From: a virus
Lineage: Duplodnaviria > Caudoviricetes
DNA length: 64,000 nt
Virus record (IMG/VR): IMGVR_UViG_2884371665_000002
Reading direction: 5' to 3' (one strand)
A model generated the notes under the pieces. The model worked only from the letters and a program-made list of their open reading frames with translations, made no database searches and was not told the DNA's origin. How positions within the stretch are numbered: the first letter of the stretch is position 1; every line of letters begins with the position of its first letter. Below, in pieces: positions 2,713-34,458 of this stretch. Made by a program: the position numbers and the translations under genes.

Positions 2713-3993
2713 TTAAGACTCTGAAACCGGATCTGGTTGCAAATTCATTTCCCGGATCATTCGCCGTTCGTCAATATGAGCGTAGTGCTTCAAATATTCT
2801 ATTGAACTTAATCCCATCATTCGAGCCGTCGTGTGTACGTCAGTGGCATGTTCGTTCAAATTATGGTCGGCAAACGTCTTTCGGGCTGACTTAGTGGTCA
2901 ACGTTTTATGAAACCCTAAATAGGCTGAAATCAGCGTAAGACCGTCGTTAAACTGCGTCAGCGAGCAGGTCGGTAGTTTATCAAACCCGCCGTATTTTTC
3001 TGCCAGGCTAAAGTTTATTGGCTTGAGTGGGGCTATCAAATACTTTTTGGTTTTCTTCCGTTTCATCCGAATGAACGAAACGCCCGATACCACCCGCAAA
3101 TAGCTTGATGGAGCAGCCACAAACTGTTTATATTCGGCGTGGTGGGTGCCAATCTGCTGCATAAAAATATAGGCATCCCGCAACCGTTCCAGTCGAACAG
3201 CCCGCTCGGGCTTGATGGACAATGAATGAAAATTGAAGGTTTGGAGCAGAGCCAGCTCATCGGGATAAAGAAAGACCATATCGTCAGGATCAGGTTCGTC
3301 TTTTTCCACCTTGTAGGGTTTAATGGAATTACTCCGAACGGCCTTTTTGAGCACGGCATAATCAAGCAGACTTTTGATGTAATACAGATGCTTTCCCAGA
3401 TAATTGATCGCAAATTTGCGTTGCCCCCACGCTTTAAACTCATTGAGCCAGGCTTCGTCAATCTCATCAATATAAGCCCTGGTCTGCTTGCTGTCGACCA
3501 GGTAGTCCAGGATATTGTTGGTGTATTTCTGGTAGGCTTCGTAGGTATCACCGCTAATTACATCTTTACTGGTGGCCAACTCGTCAGGGTCATCGCTAAT
3601 CCGTTCTTCGTGCTGCTTTAATAACCGTTCCAGCATGGTCTGAATGGTGTAGCGGACTCGCTTTTGCCCTCGATACACTTCCAGAACTTGTTGGGCGGTG
3701 ACGTGTACGTCGTCCTGGTCTAATAGATTGAAGGCTTTTTTTAGCTTCACCTTCATTCGCTCGAGCAATTGATTGTCCAGATCAGCCGTGGGTGCAGCAT
3801 CAGTAACTTTCTGTTTTGCCTGGTTCCAGTGCCTGGGGTTTACCTTGACATTGGTTGAAATGTCAGCCGTGTAGGTGTTGACCGTGATTCGGGCATAAAG
3901 AGCCACTTCAGCCGGTTTCGGCTTGCCCCGTTTGGAAGGTCGGTAATTGCGTCTGAGTTTGAACAGAACCTGCATTCGATTTTGGTAAAACAT
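2713..3993 (-). CDS. int: Tyrosine recombinase/integrase (Bacteroidota type: arm-binding, SAM-like and catalytic domains) with an atypical catalytic motif
   Basis: N-terminal LYARITVN...ISTNVKV...WNQ arm domain; C-terminal LTTKSARKTFA and KHYA boxes. Confidence 0.85.
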   Translation of the reverse strand: MFYQNRMQVLFKLRRNYRPSKRGKPKPAEVALYARITVNTYTADISTNVKVNPRHWNQAKQKVTDAAPTADLDNQLLERMKVKLKKAFNLLDQDDVHVTAQQVLEVYRGQKRVRYTIQTMLERLLKQHEERISDDPDELATSKDVISGDTYEAYQKYTNNILDYLVDSKQTRAYIDEIDEAWLNEFKAWGQRKFAINYLGKHLYYIKSLLDYAVLKKAVRSNSIKPYKVEKDEPDPDDMVFLYPDELALLQTFNFHSLSIKPERAVRLERLRDAYIFMQQIGTHHAEYKQFVAAPSSYLRVVSGVSFIRMKRKKTKKYLIAPLKPINFSLAEKYGGFDKLPTCSLTQFNDGLTLISAYLGFHKTLTTKSARKTFADHNLNEHATDVHTTARMMGLSSIEYLKHYAHIDERRMIREMNLQPDPVSES

Positions 3994-10846: not shown

Positions 10847-13800
10847 ATGTCCGAACTAGCCCTAAAACTGGTTAAAGCAAATAGAAGAACTAAAGCAAAA
10901 TTCCTGGATCTTGGAAACTGTGGTATAGTTGGTGAAGTACCGGAAGAAATAGGAGATTGTATCTGGTTGGAAGAGTTGTCATTTTCTCAAGAATGGTATA
11001 ATTTCAATTCCCTAAATTCAACATCCAATATTGGCTTACCAAACAAAATTGACAGCTTACCTCCATCTTTTATTAAATTAACTAACTTAAAAAACCTTTG
11101 GATAAATGGAAGCGAAAGTAATAAATGGGGATTAAAAGATTTATCTCTACTTAAAACTCTCACAAAGTTACAACAGCTTACTTGCTCTTTTACTGAAGTG
11201 CAAAGCTTGCTTCCACTTAATAGTTTATTACATCTAAAATTACTCTACTGTGATGAGACGCAGGTCAGCGACCTGTCTCCCTTAGCCAACTTAACTCAGC
11301 TAAAACTGGTATCTTTTGACAAGACTGCCATTGCTGATCTGTCTCCCTTAGCAGGACTATCCTCGCTTGAAAAATTATACTGTGATGAGACGCAAGTCAA
11401 CGACTTGTCTCCCTTAGTTAACTTAACCCAGCTTAAGATTCTATCTTTTGACAAGACTGCCATTGCTGATCTGTCTCCCTTAGCAGGACTATCCTTGCTT
11501 GAAAAATTTTATTGTACTGAGACGCAAGTCAGCGACCTGTCTCCCTTAGTTAACTTAACCCAACTTACTATTCTTAGTTGTTCCACGACTACCATTGCTG
11601 ATCTGTCCCCCCTAGCGGGACTATCCTTGCTTGAAAAATTATACTGTATTGAGACACAGGTTAGCGACTTATCCCTCTTAGCCAACTTAACCCAACTTAC
11701 TATTCTTAGTTGTTCCAAGACTACCATTGCCGATCTGTCCCCATTATCGAACCTAACCTTGCTTGAAGAATTATACTGTGATGAGACGCAAGTCAACGAC
11801 TTGTCTCCCTTAGCCAACTTAACCCAACTTACTCTTCTTAGTTGTTCCAAGACTACCATTGCCGATCTGTCCCCATTATCGAACCTAACCTTGCTTGAAA
11901 AATTATACTGTGATGAGACGCAAGTCAACGACTTGTCTCCCTTAGCCAACTTAACTCAGCTAAAACTGGTATCTTTTGACAAGACTGCCATTGCTGATCT
12001 GTCTCCCTTAGCAGGACTATCCTTGCTTGAAAAATTTTATTGTACTGAGACGCAAGTCAGCGACCTGTCTCCCTTAGTTAACTTAACCCAACTTACTATT
12101 CTTAGTTGTTCCACGACTACCATTGCTGATCTGTCCCCCCTAGCGGGACTATCCTTGCTTGAAAAATTATACTGTATTGAGACACAGGTTAGCGACTTAT
12201 CCCTCTTAGCCAACTTAACCCAACTTACTATTCTTAGTTGTTCCAAGACTACCATTGCCGATCTGTCCCCATTATCGAACCTAACCCTGCTTGAAGAATT
12301 ATACTGTGATGAGACGCAAGTCAACGACTTGTCTCCCTTAGCCAACTTAACCCAACTTACTCTTCTTAGTTGTTCCAAGACTACCATTGCCGATCTGTCC
12401 CCATTATCGAACCTAACCTTGCTTGAAAAATTATACTGTGATGAGACGCAAGTCAACGACTTGTCTCCCTTAGCCAACTTAACCCAACTTACTCTTCTTA
12501 GTTGTTCCAAGACTACCATTGCCGATCTGTCCCCATTATCGAACCTAACCTTGCTTGAAAAATTATACTGTGATGAGACGCAAGTCAACGACTTGTCTCC
12601 CTTAGCCAACTTAACTCAGCTAAAACTGGTATCTTTTGACAAGACTACCATTGCTGATCTGTCTCCCTTAGCAGGACTATGCTCGCTTGAAAAATTTTAT
12701 TGTACTGAGACGCAAGTCAGCGACCTGTCTCCCTTAGTTAACTTAACCCAACTTACTCTTCTTAGTTGTTCCAAGACTACCATTGCCGATCTGTCCCCAA
12801 TATCGAACCTAACCCTGCTTGAAGAATTATACTGTGATGAGACGCAAGTCAGCGACCTGTCTCCCTTAGCGAACTTAACTCAGCTAAAGATTCTATCTTT
12901 TGACAAGACTACCATTGCTGATCTGTCCCCCCTTGCGGGACTATCCTCGCTTGAAAATTTTTTTTGTGCTGAGACGCAAGTCAGCGACTTGTCTCCCTTA
13001 GCCAACTTAACTCAGCTAAAACTGGTATCTTTTGGCAAGACTACCATTACCGATCTGTCCCCATTATCGAACCTAACCCTGCTTGAAGAATTATACTGTG
13101 ATGAGACGCAGGTCTGCGACTTGTCCCCCTTAGCCAACTTAACCCAATTAAAGATTCTTACTTGTCGAAAAATTGCTATTGCTGATCTGTCTCCCTTAGC
13201 AGGACTATCCTTGCTTGAAAAAATAAACTGTAACGAGACGCAAGTCAACGACTTATCTCCTTTAGTTAACTTAACTCAGCTAAAACTGGTATCTTTTGAC
13301 AAGACTGCCATTGCTGATCTGTCTCCCTTAGCAGGACTATCCTTGCTTGAAAAATTTTATTGTACTGAGACGCAAGTCAGCGACCTGTCTCCCTTAGTTA
13401 ACTTAACCCAGCTAAAACTGGTAGCTTTTGACAAGACTACCATTGCTGATCTGTCTCCCTTAGCAGGACTATCCTTGCTTGAAAAATTTTATTGTACTGA
13501 GACGCAAGTCAGCGATCTGTCCCCCTTAGCCAACTTAACCCAACTTACTATTCTTAGTTGTTCCAAGACTACCATTGCTGATCTGTCCCCCCTTGCGGGA
13601 CTATCCTCGCTTGAAAAATTATACTGTATTGAGACACAGGTTAGCGACTTATCCCCCTTAGCCAACTTAACTCAACTAAAGGTTCTTAATTGTCGAAAAA
13701 TTGCTATTGCTGATCTGTCCCCATTATCGAACCTAACCTTGCTTGAAGAATTATACTGTTCTGAGACGCAGGTTAGCAATCTATCTCCATTAGTCGATCT

Positions 13801-16378
13801 AACCAATCTGAAGGTCCTATCATGTAGCAATAACTCCGTTGAAGATTTGTCGCCCTTAGCCGGCCTAACCCTGCTTGAAAAAATATACTGTGATGAGACA
13901 CAGATTAAAGATCTATCCGCTTTATCAGGCTTAAGTCTGCTAAAGCAATTGTCTTTCCCTCGAACATTAGTCAGGGACTTATCACCTTTACGCTGCCTAA
14001 TAAATTTAGAGGAAATTTCTTGTTATGATACAAAAGTTGAGGATCTATCTCCATTATCTGCTTGTACTCAATTAAGAATATTATATTGTTACAAAACGCC
14101 CATTAAAACTTTATCATCTATTACCTGGATTAACTTTAATAAGCTCACAAACCTATCAATATCGCAGACCCAAGTTGATGATCTTTCACCAATTCTTCCG
14201 TTGCTCGAAAAAGGATTATCTGTGAACTGGAAATTATGGGGAGATGGTATTCATATAAGGGATTGCCCACTTATTGAACCTCCATCTGAAATTGCTAAGC
14301 AGGGGAATGAAGCCATTTTGCGCTATTTTGAGGCCAAAAATCAGCAGGGCGAAGAAAAATTATATGAAGCAAAAATTGTCATTGTTGGTGCTGGTGAATC
14401 AGGGAAAACTACGCTCATTCAGAAACTTCTTGATCCTACCCACCAAGTACCAAACTTAGAAGATAAACGCACGGAAGGAATTAAGGTAAATTCTTATGCA
14501 TTTATCAGGCGAATAGAAGGTCAGCCCAAATTCTTACAGGCAAATCTTTGGGATTTTGGTGGTCAGGAGCTTTATCATACAACCCACCAACTGTTTTTAA
14601 CACCAGATACTCTCTACATATTATTAAATGATAATCGAAAAAACGACACAGACTTTTACTATTGGCTCAATATAGTTACCCTTCGAGCCAGCAAAAAATG
14701 TCCAATCTTACTGGTTTTTAATGCTAAAGACAATGCCGTCCGTCAGATTGTTTTAAGTGATGAATTATTTTTTGCATTTGAAAATCTTGTTCCGCAAGTC
14801 ATAGATGTCAATTTTGCAGATAAGGATCTAACTAAAGTCCATGGAATGAGAGAACTTATTGAAGAAAATTTCTCTCAGCTTGACGTACTCGGTAAGGCCT
14901 TTCCCGCTTACTGGGTAAAAGTGCGCGAAATGCTAGGTAAATTAACCGACGAACACATCAGTTGGGCACGATTTGCTCAAATCTGTAATCAATGCGAAGT
15001 TGAGGACGATCAACAAATGCGTATTTTAGCTCAAACGCTACATAACTTAGGAGTAATACTTTATTTCCCAGATGTCTTTGGGTTGGAGTATTTAATTATT
15101 CTGAAAATGCAATGGTGTATTGATGCAATTTATGGTGCCTTAGATACCCAAGAGATTATAAACAATAATGGGCGTTTCAATGAAGATGTCTTGGCTCGCA
15201 AATGGTCGGACAATCGATTTTCTGGCAACAGATTGCAATTGCTCAAGCTCATGCAGCATTTCGATCTGTGTTATCCAGTAGAAGGTACTTCTAATTTTAT
15301 AGCTCCACAATTACTTCCGCTGGAAGGGATTCGCGACTCTGCCTTTCCTACTAATGGAATAATTATACACCAGTTTACTTATACATTTATGCCTGCTGGT
15401 ATGCTCACTCGATTAATTGCCCGATTGAGCCGCTACATTAAAACACCGTATGTCTGGCGTATGGGGGTAACCCTTCAATGGGATGAAGGAACGATCGCAG
15501 AAATAATTGAAAATCAGTATTCTCGTCAGATTGTTATTCGCGTCGCGGGTACCGAACGTAAACGCAGACTCGCAGAAATTCGTAAGACGCTTTATGATCT
15601 TCACAAAAACTTTCTTGGATTAAAGTTTGATGAATTAGTAGCCTGTAACTGCCCGGACTGTATCGACAGCTCGACTCCTACTACGTTTCCCTTGCATGAA
15701 TTAGAGCAAGATGCTGAAGATAACGACGAGGTAAAATGTAGAAATGGCCAAAGAAAAAAAATTCCAGCCCATCAGATTCTTGATGGAATTGAATACTTTG
15801 ATAAACCCCGAGTTTTCATCTCCTACTCGCACAAAAACGAAGACTTAAAAGGTGAATTCCGCACAATGATTGCTCCATTGGAGCGGGAAGGTCACTGGAA
15901 AATCTGGGATGATCGGTGGTTATTACCAGGAGATCAATGGAATAAAGAAATTATGCGACATCTGGCAGAAGCCAATGTGATTGTGTTGATGTTGACGGCT
16001 GATTTTTTTGATTCAGATTATATCTATGATATTGAAATGTCCCGAGCTATTCAACGTCACGAATCTGGGGAGGCCTTGGTTATTGGTATTGTCGTCAGTG
16101 ACTGTATGTGGGAAGAGACGCCGCTCGCAAAAATCCAGATGATTCCCAAAGACGGACAACCTGTTGTACGTTTTGCTAATCGAGCTGAAATCTGGAAAAC
16201 TGTAGCAAATAAAATAAAGGAAACTTTAGCCATTCGGGAGGGAAAGAGAAAACGTAAAAGCGGGTGGGACCTAGAAAAATTAAACAAATTAAATTTACTA
16301 GAACCCTCTTTTGTCATCAATAGCAACATAGCGATCTCAGATATCCGCCAAGCTAGCCTGCATGGCAGATTTGATTGA
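10847..16378 (+). CDS. Roco-family protein: LRR array - Roc GTPase - COR - TIR
   Basis: About 45 22-aa LRRs; P-loop GAGESGKTT (from 14387); WDFGGQ (G3); LVFNAKD (G4-like); COR-like HNLGVILYF / PAGMLTRLIARL; TIR RVFISYSH...IWDD...SDYIYDIEM from 15800. Confidence 0.92.
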   Translation: MSELALKLVKANRRTKAKFLDLGNCGIVGEVPEEIGDCIWLEELSFSQEWYNFNSLNSTSNIGLPNKIDSLPPSFIKLTNLKNLWINGSESNKWGLKDLSLLKTLTKLQQLTCSFTEVQSLLPLNSLLHLKLLYCDETQVSDLSPLANLTQLKLVSFDKTAIADLSPLAGLSSLEKLYCDETQVNDLSPLVNLTQLKILSFDKTAIADLSPLAGLSLLEKFYCTETQVSDLSPLVNLTQLTILSCSTTTIADLSPLAGLSLLEKLYCIETQVSDLSLLANLTQLTILSCSKTTIADLSPLSNLTLLEELYCDETQVNDLSPLANLTQLTLLSCSKTTIADLSPLSNLTLLEKLYCDETQVNDLSPLANLTQLKLVSFDKTAIADLSPLAGLSLLEKFYCTETQVSDLSPLVNLTQLTILSCSTTTIADLSPLAGLSLLEKLYCIETQVSDLSLLANLTQLTILSCSKTTIADLSPLSNLTLLEELYCDETQVNDLSPLANLTQLTLLSCSKTTIADLSPLSNLTLLEKLYCDETQVNDLSPLANLTQLTLLSCSKTTIADLSPLSNLTLLEKLYCDETQVNDLSPLANLTQLKLVSFDKTTIADLSPLAGLCSLEKFYCTETQVSDLSPLVNLTQLTLLSCSKTTIADLSPISNLTLLEELYCDETQVSDLSPLANLTQLKILSFDKTTIADLSPLAGLSSLENFFCAETQVSDLSPLANLTQLKLVSFGKTTITDLSPLSNLTLLEELYCDETQVCDLSPLANLTQLKILTCRKIAIADLSPLAGLSLLEKINCNETQVNDLSPLVNLTQLKLVSFDKTAIADLSPLAGLSLLEKFYCTETQVSDLSPLVNLTQLKLVAFDKTTIADLSPLAGLSLLEKFYCTETQVSDLSPLANLTQLTILSCSKTTIADLSPLAGLSSLEKLYCIETQVSDLSPLANLTQLKVLNCRKIAIADLSPLSNLTLLEELYCSETQVSNLSPLVDLTNLKVLSCSNNSVEDLSPLAGLTLLEKIYCDETQIKDLSALSGLSLLKQLSFPRTLVRDLSPLRCLINLEEISCYDTKVEDLSPLSACTQLRILYCYKTPIKTLSSITWINFNKLTNLSISQTQVDDLSPILPLLEKGLSVNWKLWGDGIHIRDCPLIEPPSEIAKQGNEAILRYFEAKNQQGEEKLYEAKIVIVGAGESGKTTLIQKLLDPTHQVPNLEDKRTEGIKVNSYAFIRRIEGQPKFLQANLWDFGGQELYHTTHQLFLTPDTLYILLNDNRKNDTDFYYWLNIVTLRASKKCPILLVFNAKDNAVRQIVLSDELFFAFENLVPQVIDVNFADKDLTKVHGMRELIEENFSQLDVLGKAFPAYWVKVREMLGKLTDEHISWARFAQICNQCEVEDDQQMRILAQTLHNLGVILYFPDVFGLEYLIILKMQWCIDAIYGALDTQEIINNNGRFNEDVLARKWSDNRFSGNRLQLLKLMQHFDLCYPVEGTSNFIAPQLLPLEGIRDSAFPTNGIIIHQFTYTFMPAGMLTRLIARLSRYIKTPYVWRMGVTLQWDEGTIAEIIENQYSRQIVIRVAGTERKRRLAEIRKTLYDLHKNFLGLKFDELVACNCPDCIDSSTPTTFPLHELEQDAEDNDEVKCRNGQRKKIPAHQILDGIEYFDKPRVFISYSHKNEDLKGEFRTMIAPLEREGHWKIWDDRWLLPGDQWNKEIMRHLAEANVIVLMLTADFFDSDYIYDIEMSRAIQRHESGEALVIGIVVSDCMWEETPLAKIQMIPKDGQPVVRFANRAEIWKTVANKIKETLAIREGKRKRKSGWDLEKLNKLNLLEPSFVINSNIAISDIRQASLHGRFD
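11138..14197 (+). repeat. Tandem 66-bp LRR-coding repeat array with higher-order 132-bp and 528-bp duplications
   Basis: 11442-11955 is repeated nearly exactly at 11970-12483; alternating LYCxETQVxDLSPL and SCSKTTIADLSPL/SFDKTAIADLSPL units. Confidence 0.9.
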
Positions 16379-19791: not shown

Positions 19792-21240
19792 ATGAATCGG
19801 CAATGGCGAACCATTTCTTCTTTGTTACGTACCCTTTGGTGCATCGAGCCAATCTGGGCCGAACAGCATTTACCACTCGTTCAAAGCTTTTTGAGCGGCC
19901 AGTTTCCCATCCAAACCAATGAAGACGACGAAACCCAAACCCAGGATCCAATTGCTGGCAAAACGTTCGCAATTGCTGCTCAGTCAGGCAGTAACTATGC
20001 CGTCCAAAATCGCTACGCGCTTGACGATCCGGAACTGCCCGACAATTCCGTCTACGTGCTGGATATGCGGGGCGTCGTCGTCAAAGAGTCGAACTGCTGC
20101 TCGATCGGTACCGAAGAATACGCCCGGCTCATTCGCCAGGCGTATGCCCACGAAAAAATTATTGGTTGCGTCGGCCTGGTCGACAGTCCCGGTGGCCAGC
20201 TGTCGGGAACACCCACGCTGTACGATGTCATTCGGGATCCGATCAAGCCTTTTGTGGTCGTCGTCAATGAAGGACTCATGGCCTCGGCGGCTTACTGGTA
20301 TTCCTGTGGTGCCGATTATATCTACGCCAGCCAGCAAACCGATCAGATCGGCAGCATCGGTGTGTACATCGAATTTGACGATGCCACCGAGGCCCGTGAA
20401 AAAATGGGCATTAAGCGCCATACGATCTATTCCGATCGCTCCAGCCAGAAAAACAGGCCCTTCCGGGATGCTAAAGAAGGAAAAACCGAACTCATCCGGG
20501 AAGACTTGAACCAGGCTGCGGACCTGTTCCGGGCTGCTGTCGAGCAGGGTCGAGGCAAGCGCCTGAAGGTTGCCAAAAAAGGCGGTCCCGATGTGTTTGA
20601 AGGCGGTCTGTTTTACGCAGGCAAAGCTATTGAACTGGGTCTGATCGATGGCTACGGTAATCTGGAAACAGCCATTGCCAAAGTAGCCGAACTGGCCAGC
20701 AAACCCAAAGGGGAAGCGGTGGAAGAGCTTCCCGATGACCATGACGAAACCGGCGATAACACGCCTGAAGTCGTTGATCTGCCCGACAACGACGATAGTG
20801 ACGAGCCTACTGCCTCTGTCGAACCTACTACCTCTCAATCCAATCTAATCTCTACAACTATGTCCCTGTTTGGTAACCCACACAAGGTGCTTTCGGGCCT
20901 GGCCGGTGTCGAAGGCTCAAAAATTACAAATGAGCAGCTCAACGCGGCCAATGCCGAACTGGATGCTGAAAAAATTACGGGCGTACGCGTCATCAGTACG
21001 ACTTATCTGGAGCAGGCCAAGCAATCCATTGCGGCACTCAACCAGAAAAATGCCGAGGTCGAAACACTAACCAAAGAGCGTGACGATGCCCGCGCTGAAG
21101 CCGCCAAGTTCGGATCGCAGCCTGGTGCCCAGCCGACCAAATCCGAAAAAGTCGAGGAGAAAATCACGACGGTCGAAAAAGACACCTACATCAGCCAGAC
21201 TGATGCCGATCTGGCAGCCATGAAGGCCCAAATGCAGTAA
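19792..21240 (+). CDS. S49 (SppA/ClpP-like) prohead protease with C-terminal scaffold-like coiled coil
   Basis: VDSPGG, LMASAAYW and IGSIGV motifs; acidic linker followed by a coiled coil. Confidence 0.88.
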   Translation: MNRQWRTISSLLRTLWCIEPIWAEQHLPLVQSFLSGQFPIQTNEDDETQTQDPIAGKTFAIAAQSGSNYAVQNRYALDDPELPDNSVYVLDMRGVVVKESNCCSIGTEEYARLIRQAYAHEKIIGCVGLVDSPGGQLSGTPTLYDVIRDPIKPFVVVVNEGLMASAAYWYSCGADYIYASQQTDQIGSIGVYIEFDDATEAREKMGIKRHTIYSDRSSQKNRPFRDAKEGKTELIREDLNQAADLFRAAVEQGRGKRLKVAKKGGPDVFEGGLFYAGKAIELGLIDGYGNLETAIAKVAELASKPKGEAVEELPDDHDETGDNTPEVVDLPDNDDSDEPTASVEPTTSQSNLISTTMSLFGNPHKVLSGLAGVEGSKITNEQLNAANAELDAEKITGVRVISTTYLEQAKQSIAALNQKNAEVETLTKERDDARAEAAKFGSQPGAQPTKSEKVEEKITTVEKDTYISQTDADLAAMKAQMQ

Positions 21241-26244: not shown

Positions 26245-27964
26245 CCGCTATCAGCTGGAGGAGCTGCTAAAATCCGATCTGGAAGCCTCGGTGCGACTGG
26301 CACACGTCGGGCTGGACTGGAATACACTCTCCGAGGACGTGACAACGATGCACCGGCATTTCAATAAGCCGCAGCTGCGTTCGATGTCGGTAGGGGCCAA
26401 TGAAGAGTATGCCGTCTGGGGTCGTGGTACGGGGAAATCGGAAGGGCTGATTGCACCCAGAACGTTTCGAAACGTAGAGATCATGCCCCGCTCGCACGGT
26501 TGTTTTGTGGGTTCGACGTATCTGCAATTGCTTGAACGAACCCTGCCGCCGGTTATTAAGGGCTGGGAGCAGATGGGCTGGCAGCGGGGCCGTGATTTCT
26601 GGATCCGGGAGCGTCCGCCTAAACACCTCAACATTCCCCAGCCCATTGTTGGGCCCATCACGACCGAACACTGCATTTTCTTTCGCAATGGTGCGGTGGC
26701 CAGCATGGTTTCGCAGGATCGGCCCGGTAGTGCGAATGGTAAAACGGTGCACTGGATCGCCGGGGATGAAGCCAAGTTTTTAGATAAACAAAAGCTTGAC
26801 AATGAACTGCTGATGACCAACCGGGGGGATGAACGCTACTTTGGCGGCATCCCTGAATTTCATAGTCTGCTCTTCTGCACCGATATGCCCACCTCCAAAG
26901 CTGCGATGTGGATACTGGAGGAAGAAAAACGGATGGATAAAAAGCGCATTCAGACCCTTCTTGACCTGCGCACCAAAATCTATTCGTTGTATGGAGCACT
27001 AGCGGCCTATCCGGGCAAGCGTAAATCCATCCTGAAGGAAATCATCAAGTTCCAGACCTTCTGGGATGAACTGCGAAAGAACACGGTTTATTTCTCGGAG
27101 GCCAGTACGCTGGATAACATCCACGGATTCGGTGCCAAAAACATTGCCCGGCTTCGGGAGAAGCTACCGACCTTCATCTTTCAGACGGCTATTCTCAACC
27201 GTCGCCCGTTTCTAACTGAAAACGCCTTTTATCCGGATCTGGATGAGCATCACTTCTACGATAAGGAAGATCATGCGTTTCTGGACTTACAGCCCGTCGA
27301 TCTGTTTGGTAAGGGCTTATTTGATGATAGCCGTAAGGATGCTGATGTCGATAAGTATCGGCCCCTCGATATTAGTCTGGACTATGGGGCACACATCAAC
27401 CCCATGCTGGTAGGCCAGCCACATGGTAGGGAGTATCGGATTCTCATGGAGTTATACGTCAGGCACCCTGACCGGGTAGCTGATCTGGCGCGCGCGTTCT
27501 GTCGCTACTACAAACACCATCCGGTTAAGATTGTCAATTACTTCTTTGATCATACCGCTATTGGGACAACGGCTACCTCGGCTAGCTCACCCAAGGATGT
27601 CTTCAAGGAGTATCTAATGAATGAAGGGTGGACAGTAGAGGATCGTTACCTAGGCCACACGCCTGATGCCGAGAACCGCTATGAACTATGGGGCCGTGCG
27701 CTAAGAGGAGGAGACAACCGGTTGTTTCGGGTAGCCTTCAACCGACACAATACCGAGTTCGTTCGTATCTCCATGCAACAGGCTCAGATTGAGCAAGGCA
27801 CCGTAGGCTTTCGGAAAGACAAGAAGGACGAAAAGAAATTGCACCTCGATCAGCGCGAAACGACCCACTTCTCTGATGCCATTGATAACCTCTTGTATGG
27901 GGCACACCTGTTACACCGCTTCGAGTCATCAAGTGGCGCACTGGATAGCATCTTCCTGACCTAG
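26216..27964 (+). CDS. terL: Terminase large subunit (probable ATG start at 26216)
   Basis: Walker A WGRGTGKS, Walker B WIAGDEAK, RNase H-like ISLDYG and HFSDAIDNL. Confidence 0.88.
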   Translation: MSQAPKILPDRYQLEELLKSDLEASVRLAHVGLDWNTLSEDVTTMHRHFNKPQLRSMSVGANEEYAVWGRGTGKSEGLIAPRTFRNVEIMPRSHGCFVGSTYLQLLERTLPPVIKGWEQMGWQRGRDFWIRERPPKHLNIPQPIVGPITTEHCIFFRNGAVASMVSQDRPGSANGKTVHWIAGDEAKFLDKQKLDNELLMTNRGDERYFGGIPEFHSLLFCTDMPTSKAAMWILEEEKRMDKKRIQTLLDLRTKIYSLYGALAAYPGKRKSILKEIIKFQTFWDELRKNTVYFSEASTLDNIHGFGAKNIARLREKLPTFIFQTAILNRRPFLTENAFYPDLDEHHFYDKEDHAFLDLQPVDLFGKGLFDDSRKDADVDKYRPLDISLDYGAHINPMLVGQPHGREYRILMELYVRHPDRVADLARAFCRYYKHHPVKIVNYFFDHTAIGTTATSASSPKDVFKEYLMNEGWTVEDRYLGHTPDAENRYELWGRALRGGDNRLFRVAFNRHNTEFVRISMQQAQIEQGTVGFRKDKKDEKKLHLDQRETTHFSDAIDNLLYGAHLLHRFESSSGALDSIFLT

Positions 27965-28041
27965 TGGCTTGCCTGTTGATGCCTGTTACGTAACACGTAT
28001 CAATCAGCTAACTGATAATCAAACACATCTGGACTGTGAAA

Positions 28042-28072
28042 ACAAGGGGCTGATAACACATCAGCCCCTTGT
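28042..28072. terminator. 13-bp hairpin after terL (terminator or packaging-site element)
   Basis: acaaggggctgat-aacac-atcagccccttgt. Confidence 0.55.
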
Positions 28073-28230
28073 CATATATGCCCCCCCCCACCCCCTGTGC
28101 AATTGCATTTCTCCCCTGTGCGTGGCATTGGGGGCATTCGCCCAGAAAGACGCGAAGCGTTCCAGAAAAAACAACCAACTCCCTGAAACAGAGTAGTTTA
28201 GACTAATTCTGAATTGCAAAAAAAGTAATA

Positions 28231-28267
28231 AAAGCGTTTGTAATTACAAACGCTTTGTGTATCTTTA
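28231..28267 (+). promoter_or_regulatory. ardC promoter with a perfect 26-bp palindromic operator
   Basis: aaagcgtttgtaattacaaacgcttt (28231-28256), then -7-like tatcttta (28260-28267). Confidence 0.7.
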
Positions 28268-28313
28268 TGTAGTGAAAGTCAGAGAGTTATACACATTTAA
28301 GCACTAAAAAAAC

Positions 28314-29222
28314 ATGGAAACGTCAAACGCAAAACGCGATCATTTTGCAGAAGTAACCAACAAAATTATTGCCAGTCTGGAAAAGGGTGTAGTGCCTTGG
28401 TATCAACCTTGGGGATTCGTAGAACCCGCGCAAAATCACTTTACGGGCCATCGATACCGGGGTATTAACTCGCTGTTAATGCTCATGGACAACTACCAAA
28501 CGCCCTATTTTGGCACCATCAAACAGATAAACGACGCAGGAGGGAGGGTAAAGAAGGGGAGCAAAAGCACTGCCGTTTATTTTCACGATTGCATTTACAA
28601 AGACAAAAATGGGGCACGACTCAGCGAGGCCCAAGCGACCGAGCGTATTAAATCGGGAGACAAAACCGTCAAAAAATACCCTTATCTACGGTTATATCCG
28701 GTTTTTAACATGGCCGATGTTGAAGGTTGCCCCATCAAACCTAGTTCCCAATTTGGGAATGAAGACAATCAGCCGCTTGCCGTTTGTCAGGATTTTTTAA
28801 CCAGTCTTGACAATGGCCCCCGCATTCTAAACTCACCCATAGAAGGTGCCTATTTTGAAAAAGTGCAGGACTACATTATGATGCCTGATTTAAACCGGTT
28901 TGTCAGTTCAGAAGCCTATTACGGTGTGCTGTTTCACGAGCTAACCCACTGGACGGGCCACAGTTCACGGCTGAACCGTGCCACCGTAACCGACGCGCTT
29001 AAGTTTGGCGATACCAATTACAGTAAAGAAGAGTTGATTGCAGAATTAGGAGCCTGTTTTTTGTGCCACCATCACGGCATAAACACCCCTGAAACGCAGC
29101 AGAATACAGAAAGTTATCTGGCGCACTGGATAGCTGTACTCAAAAAGAACAGCCGTTTCCTGTGGGAGTCGGCCAGCGAAGCCCAAGCCGCTTATAGCTA
29201 CCTCCTAGAGCTAACCGCTTAA
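28314..29222 (+). CDS. ardC: ArdC antirestriction / ssDNA-binding protein with a zincin-like domain
   Basis: LEKGVVPW..PW, YRGIN, GGRVKKG, VFN; HELTHWTGH..RLNR; YSKEELIAE. Confidence 0.9.
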   Translation: METSNAKRDHFAEVTNKIIASLEKGVVPWYQPWGFVEPAQNHFTGHRYRGINSLLMLMDNYQTPYFGTIKQINDAGGRVKKGSKSTAVYFHDCIYKDKNGARLSEAQATERIKSGDKTVKKYPYLRLYPVFNMADVEGCPIKPSSQFGNEDNQPLAVCQDFLTSLDNGPRILNSPIEGAYFEKVQDYIMMPDLNRFVSSEAYYGVLFHELTHWTGHSSRLNRATVTDALKFGDTNYSKEELIAELGACFLCHHHGINTPETQQNTESYLAHWIAVLKKNSRFLWESASEAQAAYSYLLELTA

Positions 29223-29344
29223 ACCTCCTTTTTTCTGGATAGCCTAGCACCCCGCTTTTGCGGGGGCGGGCGAATACACCCCAAATTATCACCTTACGTA
29301 GTACCTTAATTAATTCATAATCAATCAATTTACACATTTAAGCC

Positions 29345-29902
29345 ATGAAAAATACCCCAAACGTCAACGGTCAGACCTCGTCAAACGGAGCTAAAAACAA
29401 TTCACCGTTTACCATCACACCGGGCGAAGCCGTACCCGTAAGCAAACTGATCGAACAGGCAAAATTGCAGAATCCGGACGCGATTAAACAGCCGACAACC
29501 TACCCTCAACCCGCGAAACCTGAACCAGAAGAAACAACGCCAGCCCCCCAAACCGCGAGTGCAATTGCACCGGAGCCTACACTCGTTGTCGAAACGCCAG
29601 CCAGCCGGAGCCGAGCCGAAGAAATTGAATTTCAGGTTGACAAAGCGCAGAAACTGCAACTCATTAACACGCAGTTACTGAGTTTGAAAGCTAAACAAGC
29701 CGAGTTAAAGCAGTTTAGTTACGCAGTCGATAAGGACGAAGATTACCGCTATGGGCGTATTGTCATCTATGACGATGCCAACCGGGAGTTTATTTGCAAA
29801 AATCACGGTCTGGCCGCTATCGTCGTAGAGAGCTTGAAAACGCTGTTCGGTGAAAAGATCGAGGAGAAAGAGAACGAACTGCTAACCGTCTCTAAATCGT
29901 GA
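29345..29902 (+). CDS. Hypothetical protein (Pro-rich linker plus coiled coil)
   Basis: Second gene of the ardC cassette. Confidence 0.55.
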   Translation: MKNTPNVNGQTSSNGAKNNSPFTITPGEAVPVSKLIEQAKLQNPDAIKQPTTYPQPAKPEPEETTPAPQTASAIAPEPTLVVETPASRSRAEEIEFQVDKAQKLQLINTQLLSLKAKQAELKQFSYAVDKDEDYRYGRIVIYDDANREFICKNHGLAAIVVESLKTLFGEKIEEKENELLTVSKS

Positions 29903-30126
29903 GTGAGTTTGATTTATTGCTAGTGGACGAGTTGCGCCGGGAATTTCGGCGCACTCGCCCCCCGGTAAAAGTCCTAGAATGTGACTATACAGCCGGAATT
30001 TTTCGACTGACACACCGTCATCAGATAGGCTTCCGCATTTTCTGGTATCCTGCCAATCTATTGCACCCCTTGTGCTTTACGCTGAATAATACACAGTTTG
30101 AACTCATTGAGCCTTTACCATTATGA
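29899..30126 (+). CDS. Hypothetical protein
   Basis: Overlap-coupled with both neighbours. Confidence 0.45.
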   Translation: MSEFDLLLVDELRREFRRTRPPVKVLECDYTAGIFRLTHRHQIGFRIFWYPANLLHPLCFTLNNTQFELIEPLPL

Positions 30127-30596
30127 CCATAATACCCCAAGCCGCCAGCCGTTTGTTTTCGGTGGGCGAAATATCCGTACAGTACAATACAGACCGAAAC
30201 GTAAAACGCGAACAGGTAAAAGGAAGCCTTGACGCTTTTTACATTCTGCGCCAGTACTGGAGTAATCAGATAAACCGGCTGGAAGAATTTTACATCCTTT
30301 GTTTGAACCGAAATAACGAAGCAATAGGTATTTATCTGGTTTCCACGGGTGGCACATCGGGCACACTGGCTGACCCTAAAATCGTTTTTCAGGTTGCACT
30401 GGGTTGCCATGCCAGCAGTTTAATTATTGCCCACAACCACCCCAGTGGCAACATGGCCGCCAGTGAAGCCGATAAACAGCTAACCCGACGCTATAAGGAA
30501 ATTGGAAAGCTGTTAGATTGTACCCTGCTTGATCATTTGATTTTAGGGCCAGATCCGCACCTCTACTATTCGTTTGCCGATGAAGGATTGATGTAA
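30123..30596 (+). CDS. radC: RadC-like JAB/MPN domain protein
   Basis: EEFYILCLNRNN...GGTSGTLADPKIVFQ...IIAHNHPSG...SEAD...LLDHLIL. Confidence 0.9.
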   Translation: MTIIPQAASRLFSVGEISVQYNTDRNVKREQVKGSLDAFYILRQYWSNQINRLEEFYILCLNRNNEAIGIYLVSTGGTSGTLADPKIVFQVALGCHASSLIIAHNHPSGNMAASEADKQLTRRYKEIGKLLDCTLLDHLILGPDPHLYYSFADEGLM

Positions 30597-30611
30597 ACCC
30601 CCATTCTACCC

Positions 30612-31157
30612 ATGAATTATTTTATCAGAATATCACACCAGAATAACCCCGCAAACCGGCTCCAAGAGTATATTCTAAAACTGGTTGAAAAATACGACCA
30701 CCTTCTTTGTGAAGATGCCGAGACGATTTTTACGCAGGTTGAACAGTTAGTCAGTCAGGCAAACCGCGCTTATCCGCGCTGTACGGCCCAGAAAGCACAA
30801 GCCAGCCACGACCACAAAAGTAAAACCCTGAACAGTTTTCATGTGGGCGGTCTGTTTACCATGAGCGTACACAAGGTAGCCGGACAGCACCCTAAGCCAA
30901 CCGATCATCCCCCCGCACAACCAGCTCAGGCATTACCACTATCGCCAGCCGAGGAACAACCCGCCACCAGCCAGCCCCGACAGGCTATTTTAAAGAGCCG
31001 CGAAGATGATACCATTATTCGCCTAGAGTTCTGGAATCGGTTTTCATCTCGTACGCAAACCCTGCTTACCAAAGGCGTGATCTGGAATATTTATTACGAT
31101 GCCTCCAAAAATATCGTAGCAGAAGAGTTTGGAGGACAGATTCACCCCGCATTCTAA
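30612..31157 (+). CDS. Hypothetical protein
   Basis: Last gene of the cassette. Confidence 0.5.
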   Translation: MNYFIRISHQNNPANRLQEYILKLVEKYDHLLCEDAETIFTQVEQLVSQANRAYPRCTAQKAQASHDHKSKTLNSFHVGGLFTMSVHKVAGQHPKPTDHPPAQPAQALPLSPAEEQPATSQPRQAILKSREDDTIIRLEFWNRFSSRTQTLLTKGVIWNIYYDASKNIVAEEFGGQIHPAF

Positions 31158-31372
31158 TCAAACAGCTTCCTGTACTAGTTGCCCGTAGCACCCTGCTATG
31201 GGCTTTTTTGTGGCTTGTATAACTAAAAGATTAGTTGATTTGTAGCGAAGTGACTTCTTTTTTTCTTTTCCTTGCTTGGGGAAAAGAAATAAAGAAGCAA
31301 AAAAAGAAAAGCCCGCTATTGGCCTGCCGAGGAAGCAGCCTCTACCCACTTGCTGACGCTTTCAGTAAGAAC

Positions 31373-31403
31373 AAAACACCCCCGACGCAAAGCTCCGAGG
31401 GTG
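31373..31403 (-). terminator. Minus-strand intrinsic terminator for the 31648->31433 transcript
   Basis: caccctcgg...tcgggggtg followed by tttt; the G-U wobbles pair only on the minus strand. Confidence 0.65.
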
Positions 31404-31432
31404 AATAATTACACATTTAAGTTCTTGACTGC

Positions 31433-31648
31433 CTAGCCTGGCAGTATCCATATCTTTTCCTGTTTAACCAGAAAGCCTGCTTTCTCCAGCAAAGCTTCCT
31501 TGCGATCCAGGGTGATGCCTTTGCCGTTTTTGAGCATGAAAGCCGCCTGGCGACGATCTGCGGTCGGTAAGCCCGTTAGTGACCAGTAATACGGGTCGTT
31601 GACCAGTATGTCGAATGCGTCGTGCGTGGTTTTTTCGCTGCTTGCCAT
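31433..31648 (-). CDS. Small protein, candidate repressor of the ardC cassette
   Basis: 71 aa from ATG 31648; preceded by a palindrome related to the ardC operator. Confidence 0.5.
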   Translation of the reverse strand: MASSEKTTHDAFDILVNDPYYWSLTGLPTADRRQAAFMLKNGKGITLDRKEALLEKAGFLVKQEKIWILPG

Positions 31649-31651
31649 GCA

Positions 31652-31686
31652 CAAAAATACAAAAAAGCGTTATGAATTCATAACGC
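31652..31686 (-). promoter_or_regulatory. Promoter with a 20-bp palindromic operator related to the ardC operator
   Basis: gcgttatgaattcataacgc (31667-31686); minus-strand -7 box tatttttg (31659-31652). Confidence 0.65.
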
Positions 31687-31766
31687 CTCTACAAGTCTTT
31701 ATTGATGCAAACTATTTTCTAAAAAAAATCCAATTTAGCCCAAACCCAAGAAGAGCTGCTTGATCT

Positions 31767-31916
31767 TTAAATATTGTTACCCTCGAGTCGGTTGAGCAGG
31801 TCGGTAACCGCATCATGGCCCACCCCCCTGTCAGTTAAGCGAGCCAGGCCGGTGGCCGTCGTCTGTCCTAAGCTACTGAGCAGGTAATCGGTCTAGAGGT
31901 CAAGATTTGTTTGCAT
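31767..31916 (-). pseudogene. N-terminal fragment of an IS701-family-like transposase with an in-frame TAG
   Basis: Translates MQTNLDL*TDYLLSSLGQTTATGLARLTDRGVGHDAVTDLLNR. Confidence 0.6.
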
Positions 31917-31967
31917 ACCCAAATTTATACCGTCCGCCCAAAAGCTGGTGTAACATCAGATGTAAAT

Positions 31968-31997
31968 TAGCAAGTACACTTGGGAGTGTACTTGCTA
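31968..31997. terminator. 13-bp hairpin downstream of 32065..32490
   Basis: tagcaagtacact-tggg-agtgtacttgcta. Confidence 0.6.
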
Positions 31998-32064
31998 TTT
32001 GAAATTTAACTAAAAAGAGATTTGATGGAATCGAGATAACTTATGTTACGATTATTAAACCGAG

Positions 32065-32490
32065 TTAATCTTTCGACTGGGTTTCGATGTATTGAATCTG
32101 GGGGCCAGCCGTTGCGTCTGTATAGAGTTTATAATACTCTGTTGCCTTAGGCTCGCCATACATTTTTTTGAGCATCGGATGAATGTCATAATTAGCCCCT
32201 TTTATCACCGGGTCCATAACGAACAAGTAAGCATACGTGCCGTTTTTCTCAGCTTTGGTCGGGTGTAAAATGCGCGTCTGTTTAAATAATTTCTGCTCTT
32301 CTTTACTCAGCTTACTGGCACCAGGCCAGAATATTTCGTGTATAAACCGTTCATACTGAGCCTTTTTGTTTGCTTTCACCGGATTCACAATAACCCATAC
32401 GGTTTCGCCTGATTTCGAGCGGGGTGTCTGAGCGAAGGTTGTAAACGAAGCCAGTACAAACGAAGCAAGAAGGAATAGTTTGGTTTTCAT
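32065..32490 (-). CDS. Secreted hypothetical protein (moron)
   Basis: Signal peptide MKTKLFLLASFVLASFTTFA-Q; antisense to the late genes; AT-rich flanks. Confidence 0.65.
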   Translation of the reverse strand: MKTKLFLLASFVLASFTTFAQTPRSKSGETVWVIVNPVKANKKAQYERFIHEIFWPGASKLSKEEQKLFKQTRILHPTKAEKNGTYAYLFVMDPVIKGANYDIHPMLKKMYGEPKATEYYKLYTDATAGPQIQYIETQSKD

Positions 32491-32730
32491 GATTTGTGGG
32501 CTTGTTTGTTAAGTGGATTGTAAAAGAAAGCGACAATGTAAAGTGCTCAATTTCAATAATTATATCCTTATTTTCGAGGATTTTAATTAAATTATAATAC
32601 CCTGATTTTAATGAAGCCATTATTAACTGGCGTAACGTCACTTATCTAATTAATTCAAATTGTTGATCCGTATTGGCCTAGACGTAACCGCTGATTAGAG
32701 CAGATTTTATAGGTAATCTATCTTCTTTCT

Positions 32731-32777
32731 GTCATCACGCCTGTAACGCCCATCCGAGCCTGCTCCGGCCAATTTGC
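32731..32777 (+). promoter_or_regulatory. Late-promoter box 4 (portal operon)
   Basis: Exact 18-mer at 32731-32748; caatttgc at 32770-32777; ATG at 32786. Confidence 0.75.
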
Positions 32778-32785
32778 TGCCCTTT

Positions 32786-33046
32786 ATGATCAAGGTAGTA
32801 GATATGGTGAAACAGATGCGGCTGACGGTTGGGCTGGGTAAGCCCAAACCCTTCAGCTGCATTTACGTAACCGCCGATCGGAAACGAAAAAAGGGTGGTC
32901 AATTCCGCGAATTACACAAGGCTGTGCTGCTTACCAGGAAGCGCACACCCAACCGTATGCTGCTGCTGCAACCCCTTGGTACCAAAAACCCGATTCTGGT
33001 TAGCCTCGATCTGATCATCTACTTCAACGGGCAACCAGTCTCATGA
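32786..33046 (+). CDS. Small phage protein preceding the portal
   Basis: YVTADRKRKKGGQF...LIIYFNGQPV; overlaps the portal start. Confidence 0.6.
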   Translation: MIKVVDMVKQMRLTVGLGKPKPFSCIYVTADRKRKKGGQFRELHKAVLLTRKRTPNRMLLLQPLGTKNPILVSLDLIIYFNGQPVS

Positions 33047-34458
33047 GCAGCGTTCATTATTTCCCAGGGGACTCTTACGACGTAGCCATTTTAAGTGCTG
33101 CGGGCATCAGCGTAGCACTAGAAAACGATAAACCCGCTCAGCATCGATCGGGCATCATTACCTCGTCCTTCGATGCGCCAGCTGGTAAACCAACATCAGT
33201 CATACCCGACTGGTCCATGTACCCCTCAGCGAGTGGCGATCTGATGCCCTGGGGCGAAGCCAATGATTTTCCCCAGCGTATTGTCAGTCTCTACCAGAAA
33301 GACCCCATCATTCCCACAACCCTGGGAAAAGTAGCGTCCATGCTCAAGGGTAGGGGCGTCATGGCCGTCGAAGAAGATCTCGACGACAATGGCGACGAAA
33401 TTGTACGGGCCCTGCCCAAAAACGATTTTATAACCGCCGAAATCAATGCTTTCCTCAACAACATCAATTTTCAGCTCTATCTGCGCGAAATGTCGGCCGA
33501 CGTGGCCTGGTTCTTCAACGGCTGGCCTGAAATGCTGCTCAGTAAGGATCGCAAGAAAATTGTGCAATTGCACCCGCTGAATGCCGAAGAGGTTCGCTGG
33601 TGCCGAATGGATAAAAACGGCAACCTGCCGTATGTATGGGTTAATGCCAACTGGCCCAACGTCACCACCTCCGATCCGAGGACCAAAACCGTACAGGCGC
33701 TCGATCCCTACCGATGGGACCGGGTAGACTGGCTACGCGGGCAATCGTTTTACAACTGCGTTTATCCGATTTCCTATCCAACCCCGGGCCAGCGGTTTTA
33801 TTCACTGGCTCACCACTATTCGATTGTGGAGTCGGGCTGGCTCGATGTGCACCTGGCGGTGCCCGCCTTCAAAAAATTCCTCCTCAAAAACCAGATGTCG
33901 ATCAAGCAGCACATTAAGGTCGACAAGGAGTACTGGGGTGAGCTCTACGGATCCGCCTACACTAACGAGAAATCGGAAGAGAAAAAAAGGGCGATGCGCA
34001 AAAAGTGGATCGACGATGTGATCAAAATGCTCACCAACGTCGAGAACGCCGGCGCCATGCTCGTGACCAGCATCGCTCAGTCACTGGACGGCAAATCGAC
34101 CCGCGATTACGTGCAGATTGTCCCGATTACTGACACCATGAAAGATGGTAAGTACATCGAGGATAACCTTGAAGCAGCTGCCAATATCTTTTATACGCTC
34201 GGTGTCGATCCTACCCTGGTTGGGTTTGCCGGTGGCTCCAAACAGGGTGAACGCTCCGGCGGCTCCGATAAACGGGAAGCCTACCTGATTGCCCTGCAAA
34301 TGCTGGCACCGTTCCGGGATATGCTCATCGAGCCGCTCGAATTCGTGGCCGAATTCAATGGCTGGAAAGCCCGCTTTCCCAATCTGCGTTTCCGCTTCCG
34401 GGATACACTGCTCACCACTCTGGATACCGGTGCCGGCACCCAGAAAACTTTAAGCTAA
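33043..34458 (+). CDS. Portal protein
   Basis: 471 aa; PWGEANDFPQ..., IFYTLGVDPTLVG, SGGSDKREA; position before the connector gene. Confidence 0.75.
   Translation: MSSVHYFPGDSYDVAILSAAGISVALENDKPAQHRSGIITSSFDAPAGKPTSVIPDWSMYPSASGDLMPWGEANDFPQRIVSLYQKDPIIPTTLGKVASMLKGRGVMAVEEDLDDNGDEIVRALPKNDFITAEINAFLNNINFQLYLREMSADVAWFFNGWPEMLLSKDRKKIVQLHPLNAEEVRWCRMDKNGNLPYVWVNANWPNVTTSDPRTKTVQALDPYRWDRVDWLRGQSFYNCVYPISYPTPGQRFYSLAHHYSIVESGWLDVHLAVPAFKKFLLKNQMSIKQHIKVDKEYWGELYGSAYTNEKSEEKKRAMRKKWIDDVIKMLTNVENAGAMLVTSIAQSLDGKSTRDYVQIVPITDTMKDGKYIEDNLEAAANIFYTLGVDPTLVGFAGGSKQGERSGGSDKREAYLIALQMLAPFRDMLIEPLEFVAEFNGWKARFPNLRFRFRDTLLTTLDTGAGTQKTLS

Follow-up and report, generated by a model that had tools for sequence, protein, structure and literature searches.

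A predicted antisense RNA in the 3' untranslated region of a small gene facing the ardC cargo operon of a Spirosomataceae prophage

Three copies of a word in the cargo slot

We analysed a 64,000-nt stretch of viral DNA (IMG/VR virus record IMGVR_UViG_2884371665_000002; Duplodnaviria, Caudoviricetes), referred to throughout as the window, in which a cargo operon headed by the anti-restriction gene ardC converges on a small gene coding for a 71-aa protein, and in which one 12-nt word recurs ahead of two cargo units and in the 3' untranslated region (3'UTR) of the small gene. The whole stretch is an integrated Spirosomataceae prophage with an integrase (2713-3993), an S49 head-maturation protease (19792-21240) and tail-fibre genes. 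Its cargo slot is bounded by a conserved 615-aa gene, a putative terL (terL-like below), and a portal gene, whose 471-aa product (33043-34458) matches annotated portal proteins of Polaribacter and Microcystis phages with 23-28% identity. The features of the slot, by position in the window, are as follows.

28231..28256: putative palindromic operator AAAGCGTTTGTAATTACAAACGCTTT, overlapping the ardC promoter
28237..28267, plus strand: putative cargo promoter of the Bacteroidota type, with -33 TTTG (28237-28240), a 19-nt spacer and -7 TATCTTTA (28260-28267)
28290..28301, plus strand: predicted target 1 within the ardC leader, TACACATTTAAG, spanning -24 to -13 relative to the ATG
28314..29222, plus strand: ardC, 302 aa, with ArdcN (PF08401, 5e-26) and a zincin-like metallopeptidase domain (PF18818, 1e-33)
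29330..29342, plus strand: predicted target 2, TTACACATTTAAG, spanning -15 to -3 relative to the 185-aa gene's ATG
29345..31157, plus strand: second cargo unit, consisting of a 185-aa gene (29345-29902), a 75-aa gene (29899-30126), radC (30123-30596) and a 181-aa gene (30612-31157)
30083..30103, plus strand: possible third target, imperfect, TGAATAATACACAGTTTGAAC, ending 19 nt 5' of the radC ATG
31181..31213, plus strand: intrinsic terminator of the cargo operon, a 10-bp stem followed by TTTTTTGTGG
31367..31403, minus strand: intrinsic terminator of the small gene, a 9-bp GC-rich hairpin (31403-31377) followed by UUUUGUUCUU
31409..31421, minus strand: predicted antisense seed CUUAAAUGUGUAA in the small-gene 3'UTR
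31428..31445, minus strand: small hairpin ACUGCC/GGCAGU across the stop codon, located 5' of the seed
31433..31648, minus strand: small regulator gene, 71 aa, with stop codon 31433-31435
31652..31659, minus strand: -7 box TATTTTTG, 3 nt 5' of the small-gene ATG
31667..31686: putative palindromic operator GCGTTATGAATTCATAACGC at the small-gene promoter

The exact copies of TACACATTTAAG (28290-28301, 29331-29342 and 31410-31421) all read on the plus strand and span 3.1 kb. Copy 1 lies 12 nt 5' of the ardC ATG (28314) and copy 2 lies 2 nt 5' of ATG 29345, with copies 2 and 3 having a 13th base in common (TTACACATTTAAG, 29330-29342 and 31409-31421). These are the only copies in the whole 8,898,242-bp genome, all three within the window, compared to none for a reversed-pattern control, and a chance origin of the word was rejected on this count; variants with one mismatch occurred at about the level of chance (16 other genome sites compared to 28 control matches). 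A host-wide promoter or leader motif was also rejected, as the word was found nowhere else in the 8.9 Mb and fitted TAnnTTTG in no register. The word does contain a minus-strand ATG; the frames it opens, of only 24 codons at copy 3 and of 65 aa at copy 2, were judged spurious.

Copy 3 lies beyond the cargo operon's own plus-strand terminator, and no plus-strand open reading frame was present downstream of it. On the minus strand it stands 11 nt past the stop of the 71-aa gene, the sole leftward gene of the cargo slot, and 5-6 nt before the terminator hairpin, with a mean predicted unpaired probability of 0.64. An earlier note on this DNA, made from its letters and open reading frames, had placed the 12-mer at these three positions, 12 nt from the ardC ATG, 2 nt from ATG 29345 and 6 nt from the minus-strand hairpin, and had described the third copy as an unpaired part of the small-gene 3'UTR ahead of that hairpin. 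The exact pattern search of window and genome agrees with these positions, the spacings are correct, and the predicted unpaired probability is in line with a mostly single-stranded copy 3 in the 3'UTR.

The cargo promoter follows the Bacteroidota consensus TTTG/TAnnTTTG (PMC7366714) and predicts a 5' untranslated region (5'UTR) of approximately 40 nt that contains target 1. Within the second unit the first three genes overlap by 4 nt at each junction and radC (PF04002 at 3e-34) is separated from the 181-aa gene by 15 nt. The imperfect copy on the radC side (TGAATAATACACAGTTTGAAC, 30083-30103) aligns to 31402-31415 with one gap and 13 of 14 positions identical, and uses the terminator-adjoining part of the 3'UTR; it was found in the window cassette only, with no counterpart in the related cassettes L060, L061 and L064 described below.

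Words, leaders and operators in related cassettes

A whole-cassette DNA search of 200 genomes of the family returned patchy matches only, so related loci had to be anchored on the small protein; approximately 8 kb was fetched on each side where the contig allowed, and cargo was oriented to the plus strand. The 24 related loci keep one layout, consisting of the 615-aa gene, a variable cargo of 0.3-5.5 kb, the small gene on the opposite strand and the portal gene. Words were searched for as the longest exact matches between the 110 nt past the small-gene stop and the rest of the locus. Nine ardC loci, the window included, were selected by their ardC tblastn match alone and, together with L029, in which radC is the first cargo gene, give ten cassettes from four genera, all of which have a word. 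In every ardC locus the top plus-strand match of the small-gene 3'UTR is found a short way upstream of the ardC ATG, and 6/10 cassettes have a second one shortly before the next transcription unit. Nine distinct words occur in the ten cassettes, each matching its own targets.

Window: TACACATTTAAG
L026 (Arsenicibacter metagenome-assembled genome): ACTACTTTTTTCTA and ACTTTTTTCTATTAA
L029 (A. rosenii; radC as first cargo gene): TTACTTTTTACTTATA
L060 and L061 in common: CACTTTCAAACAA...
L060: CACTTTCAAACAAAA
L061 (Spirosoma fluminis): CACTTTCAAACAAAAAAA
L064: CACACTTTCAATCAAA
L066: CCAGTTAAAAACA
L070, L075 and L081: imperfect blocks of 24-33 nt with a few mismatches and indels

For the run statistics we compared the 60 nt past each stop with the leader (-45 to +3) of each first cargo gene. 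Cognate pairs of 3'UTR and leader gave exact runs of 12, 14, 16, 15, 18, 16, 13, 12, 10 and 10 nt, compared to mostly 5-10 nt for non-cognate pairs (L060 and L061 share a word) and at most 9 nt for the wrong-strand control. The sole other non-cognate run above 10 nt was one of 13 nt between the 3'UTR of L081 and the leader of L075, which belong to the same genus. The cognate runs sum to 136 compared to a permuted mean of 76 (standard deviation 8.6), and 0 of 100,000 permuted pairings reached 136, a count that overstates independence because the cassettes are kin. Summed duplex energies were -241 kcal/mol for cognate and -145 kcal/mol for permuted pairings, and comparing the 3'UTRs with whole cargo regions gave the same picture as the leaders. 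The complementarity lies 1-16 nt upstream of the first- and second-unit start codons and is specific to the cognate cassette.

Three sets of relatives could be aligned (the window, L060/L061 and L064), and each difference between them is mirrored in leader 1, leader 2 and the 3'UTR copy. Compared to L064 the window has an extra A (CACATTT vs CACTTT) and a missing C (TTTAA vs TTTCAA), and a site with three states, G in the window, A in L060/L061 and T in L064, is likewise mirrored at all three copies. The flanks of the word differ between copies, indicating that the word itself is the conserved part. In the second-gene targets of L060 and L064 the only mismatches are an A in copy 3 against a G in the target, which is compatible with G:U pairing. 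The copies in L070, L075 and L081 differ by indels that an RNA duplex would accommodate as bulges.

The position of the 3'UTR copy is equally constant. In all ten cassettes the word stands 3-24 nt past the small-gene stop and 0-8 nt before a strong GC hairpin with a U-run on the same strand, and in the seven cassettes with short words it is mostly unpaired (probability 0.47-0.93). A perfect TAnnTTTG box occurs 3-4 nt 5' of the small-gene ATG in seven cassettes (window, L026, L029, L060, L061, L064 and L081) and a further one approximately 22 nt upstream in L066. Since the -7 box is only 3-4 nt from the ATG, this suggests that the small-gene mRNA is leaderless or nearly so, a rare arrangement in Bacteroides, where approximately 3.7% of 5'UTRs are shorter than 10 nt (PMC7366714). 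No TAnnTTTG box was seen by eye within the final ~90 nt of the small-gene coding sequence, so that an RNA from this 3' end would need processing or would have to act as the full-length mRNA. Rfam 15 covariance models run over 27000-33000 gave sub-threshold, chance-type matches only, none of them at the seed or the terminator.

The window genome carries three slot elements of this type in total. The two further ones (L067, L069; G000:C1:6346718-6346918 and G000:C1:7803238-7803423) have small-protein paralogues of approximately 43-48% identity, and the 12-mer is absent from both. In L069 the cargo slot is empty (320 nt), and the small-gene promoter there bears GCGTCCCGAATTGGGACG, a palindrome resembling an operator. 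The empty-slot elements L069 and L072 have neither a cargo promoter nor such a word. An order-level search (400 genomes), genome contigs, metagenome contigs and five distant-homologue look-ups yielded no further ardC cassettes.

A second set of matched sequences was found at the promoters. In the window GCGTTTGTAATTACAAACGC (ardC promoter) and GCGTTATGAATTCATAACGC (small-gene promoter) form a putative pair of operator motifs, and palindrome pairs co-vary between the cargo and small-gene promoters in L026, L029, L066 and L070. For L060, L061 and L064 the 130 nt upstream of ardC gave no clear operator pair. TAnnTTTA-like boxes occur at the place equivalent to the cargo promoter in L026, L029 and L066.

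The 71-aa protein belongs to a family of approximately 135 small proteins (E <= 0.001), which also occurs in other mobile contexts; a search against isolated phages (INPHARED) gave no match. Its model has four helices (predicted local distance difference test score 84), and the best structural matches (VIA-align) are XRE-family regulators with Z of only 4.2 and 4.1, while Foldseek returned nothing significant. A few members of the family match helix-turn-helix Pfam models and the PDB profile matches to homeodomains are weak (E 0.03-0.1). A helix-turn-helix assignment is tentative, and a role of the 71-aa protein as binder of both matched palindromes is plausible.

Other features of the slots were also recorded. 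Between the two convergent terminators of the window lies an AG/CT-rich long inverted repeat, ttttttcttttccttgc...gcaaaaaaagaaaag (31236-31324), a 29-nt piece of which is found again, with 93-97% identity, in several other genomes of the family; Rfam gives sub-threshold miRNA-like matches only for this repeat, and L026 has a similar aagaaagaaag hairpin at the equivalent place. A non-coding block just 3' of the 615-aa gene (window 28073-28140; L026 2860-2925; L069, L072) is kept in all elements including those with empty slots. It reads CATATAT, a C-run, TGCAATTGCA, GTGCGTGGCA and a G-run, and could be a packaging site or a structured element. At 2560-2800 of L026 a GC-rich unit of approximately 60 nt, ccgctaagggcggggccggacatagcgggtctgtggggcaggtctca, is repeated in tandem between the terL-like gene and the cargo promoter, and related sequence occurs in L029. 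Elsewhere in the window the prophage encodes an 1843-aa LRR-Roc-COR-TIR protein (10847-16378).

A predicted antisense RNA and its alternatives

Probably the 3' end of the small-gene mRNA serves as an antisense RNA that targets the cargo leaders in trans and works in parallel with the operators. We infer the existence of the RNA, its pairing, the direction of its effect and the role of the protein from sequence. The mRNA would be approximately 280 nt long, probably starting at or next to the AUG and ending at the terminator 31403-31367, and would bear the 13-nt mostly single-stranded CUUAAAUGUGUAA between the stop codon and the terminator hairpin. Within the full mRNA or a processed 3' fragment, CUUAAAUGUGUAA would pair in trans with the convergent cargo transcript, at -24 to -13 of ardC and at -15 to -3 of the next gene, and the resulting 12-13 bp duplex at both leaders would block initiation and/or expose the mRNA to decay. 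Initiation in Bacteroidota does not involve Shine-Dalgarno pairing and requires open A-rich leaders, for which reason a duplex in the leader should block it; UTR-derived small RNAs (sRNAs) are present in the phylum, Bacteroides has no obvious Hfq and ProQ homologues, and longer seeds are expected where these two are absent (PMC7366714). The protein encoded by this same transcript would likely bind both matched palindromes, that of its own promoter and that of the ardC promoter. A single transcript would in that case supply both a transcriptional and a post-transcriptional brake on the anti-restriction cassette, and ArdC would be made in a brief pulse once DNA has entered and be silenced in the lysogen.

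The earlier note had read the locus as a lock of protein plus RNA, in which an antisense RNA adds to silencing by an operator, and had named covariation in homologous cassettes as a check on the idea. This check was positive, with words that change and yet match their own leaders in ten cassettes, and the matched palindromes that would form the operator layer lie at both promoters and co-vary among relatives. At the level of sequence, the protein-plus-RNA interpretation is supported by this co-variation.

Several observations weigh against an antisense RNA. Besides the kinship of the cassettes noted above, L029 joined the comparison set after its match had been seen, and the eight same-slot cassettes without ardC (one of them, L079, with radC) had no cognate run above background. 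In L070, L075 and L081 the block lies partly within hairpins, with an unpaired probability of 0.30-0.41. The 12-bp AU-rich duplex of the window reaches only -12.5 kcal/mol, and a ranking by energy alone puts the two leaders second and third of 67 translation starts in the window, behind a patchwork chance match. Mismatches between copies are too few for a test of G:U asymmetry. Finally, sequence identity on one strand, taken alone, fits a DNA-level site or a recombination boundary equally well.

The first of these, which we consider unlikely, holds that the words are double-stranded DNA sites for a sequence-specific prophage protein (a second regulator, or a looping or partition-like factor) and that the word changes with the specificity of the protein. 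One-strand identity of all copies is also what a DNA site looks like, but the words lack symmetry, vary in length between 12 and 33 nt and are wholly different between elements whose regulators are 40-70% identical. The cassette does have DNA operators that co-vary between two promoters, and phage repressors do use distant operators (lambda OL/OR); no second DNA-binding gene, however, is conserved in the slot. Protein sites rarely tolerate indels such as the 1-4 nt that separate copies within L070, L075 and L081, and there is no obvious DNA reason why two copies should always lie by a start codon and the third always between stop and terminator, an arrangement that an RNA would account for. 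We favour an RNA over a DNA-level site because the word lies within the small-gene transcription unit and because indels between copies are tolerated.

That the words mark the boundaries of mobile or recombining cargo units, exchanged as cassettes in the terL-portal slot and without a role in expression, has a rather low probability. The slot is very variable (0.3 to 5.5 kb, with different cargo in related prophages) and three repeats bracket exactly two transcription units, yet no recombinase gene is found in the slot, and a site-specific recombinase should keep one conserved site where nine unrelated words were found. Homologous exchange would not be efficient with repeats as short as 12-18 nt. 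Also in favour of boundaries, the promoter and leader are fused straight to radC in L029, and the alignment of copy 3 with leader 1 runs weakly into the flank, a hint of an old duplication; exact, sharp-edged words nevertheless persist amid diverged flanks, which indicates selection on the word itself. The right-hand copy is moreover always on the gene side of the small-gene terminator, which would require a backbone gene's terminator to move together with the cargo.

Very improbable is an element of the plus-strand leaders serving copies 1 and 2 with copy 3 as a by-product or read-through decoy, be it a translation enhancer, which the earlier note had named as its fallback, or a binding site for an RNA-binding protein, since, although copies 1 and 2 do lie in A/U-rich leaders near the AUG where Bacteroidota initiation signals are located (PMC7366714), a general enhancer should recur whereas the word is absent from the rest of the genome and different in related cassettes, and copy 3 precedes no plus-strand reading frame and lies past the cargo terminator, its position being nonetheless conserved in 10/10 cassettes.

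Known systems and meaning for the prophages

The predicted antisense RNA resembles 3'UTR-derived sRNAs in that it is a segment downstream of a coding sequence, shares the intrinsic terminator of the mRNA, and has a short single-stranded seed with predicted complementarity to the translation-initiation regions of other mRNAs. Nearest in logic is ArgX; ArgR itself controls arc. ArgX is an sRNA derived from the argR 3' end that represses the arc operon (PMC9438474), and UTR-derived sRNAs have been catalogued in Bacteroides (PMC7366714). Unlike in the known examples, the RNA here is a predicted one and its targets belong to the neighbouring, convergent operon carried by the same mobile element; the seed and target code is rewritten in each prophage lineage, whereas known seeds are conserved; and the match is long (12-18 nt, up to approximately 30 nt) and perfect, with no sequence or Rfam relationship. 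Classic 3'UTR sRNAs depend on Hfq or ProQ, whereas the host phylum here, judged from Bacteroides, is without them.

A phage parallel is given by the c4 RNA of P1/P7, which acts on icd-ant, and the CI RNA of P4, in which seqB is set against seqA and seqC. As in the window, one short phage seed has two complementary sites on a phage transcript, and seed and targets change together between relatives, in those phages through small matched changes that set specificity and here as nine words in ten cassettes. Both c4 and CI arise by processing of the 5' portion of the very transcript that they control, and P4 CI works by transcription termination, whereas seed and targets in the window lie on opposite strands, in convergent units that each have their own terminator. 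The targets of c4 and CI are antirepressor or replication functions, compared to the start regions of ardC and of a radC-containing operon here, in a different host phylum and with no sequence similarity. On this comparison the window system would not be a member of the c4 or CI type, since its transcripts are convergent and its targets are not antirepressors. Minor differences in P1/P7 ImmI cause heteroimmunity (PMC6906374).

On the protein side, establishment genes of conjugative plasmids (Reg576/ardC576 of p576 and ArdK/ArdR of pKM101) are under a small element-encoded repressor with operators at several promoters including its own, which makes expression after entry transient (PMC6294495). 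Reg576/ardC576 and the window have in common that one operator motif, putative in the window, recurs at both the ardC promoter and the promoter of the regulator itself. Those systems are protein-only and plasmid-borne, unlike the prophage terL-like/portal slot with its putative RNA layer, and the small protein of the window, whose DNA binding is putative, is unrelated in sequence to their regulators.

Anti-restriction genes need brief expression on entry followed by shut-off, and the known controls are single-stranded DNA promoters and protein repressors. A limited literature search found no description of RNA control of ardC or of a 3'UTR sRNA from a Bacteroidota phage regulator. If the antisense RNA is real, ardC-type anti-restriction genes would gain their first described RNA-level control, and Bacteroidota their first 3'UTR-borne phage sRNA, one that acts without Hfq or ProQ. 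A regulator transcript that gives both a protein and an RNA brake on one operon, with a lineage-specific seed code, would be a new control design, and the pair would offer a compact natural sRNA and target with 12-18 nt of perfect pairing in a phylum whose post-transcriptional control is poorly understood. The ten natural seed and target variants amount to a compensatory-mutation series made by evolution, which makes the idea directly testable, and the terL-portal slot with its promoter, operator and predicted RNA lock is a useful marker for anti-defence cargo of phages. For the family as a whole we see the case as evenly poised that Spirosomataceae prophages carry a self-addressed RNA lock, whose seed and target code is rewritten in each lineage so that co-resident relatives, of which there are three in this genome, would not be cross-silenced.

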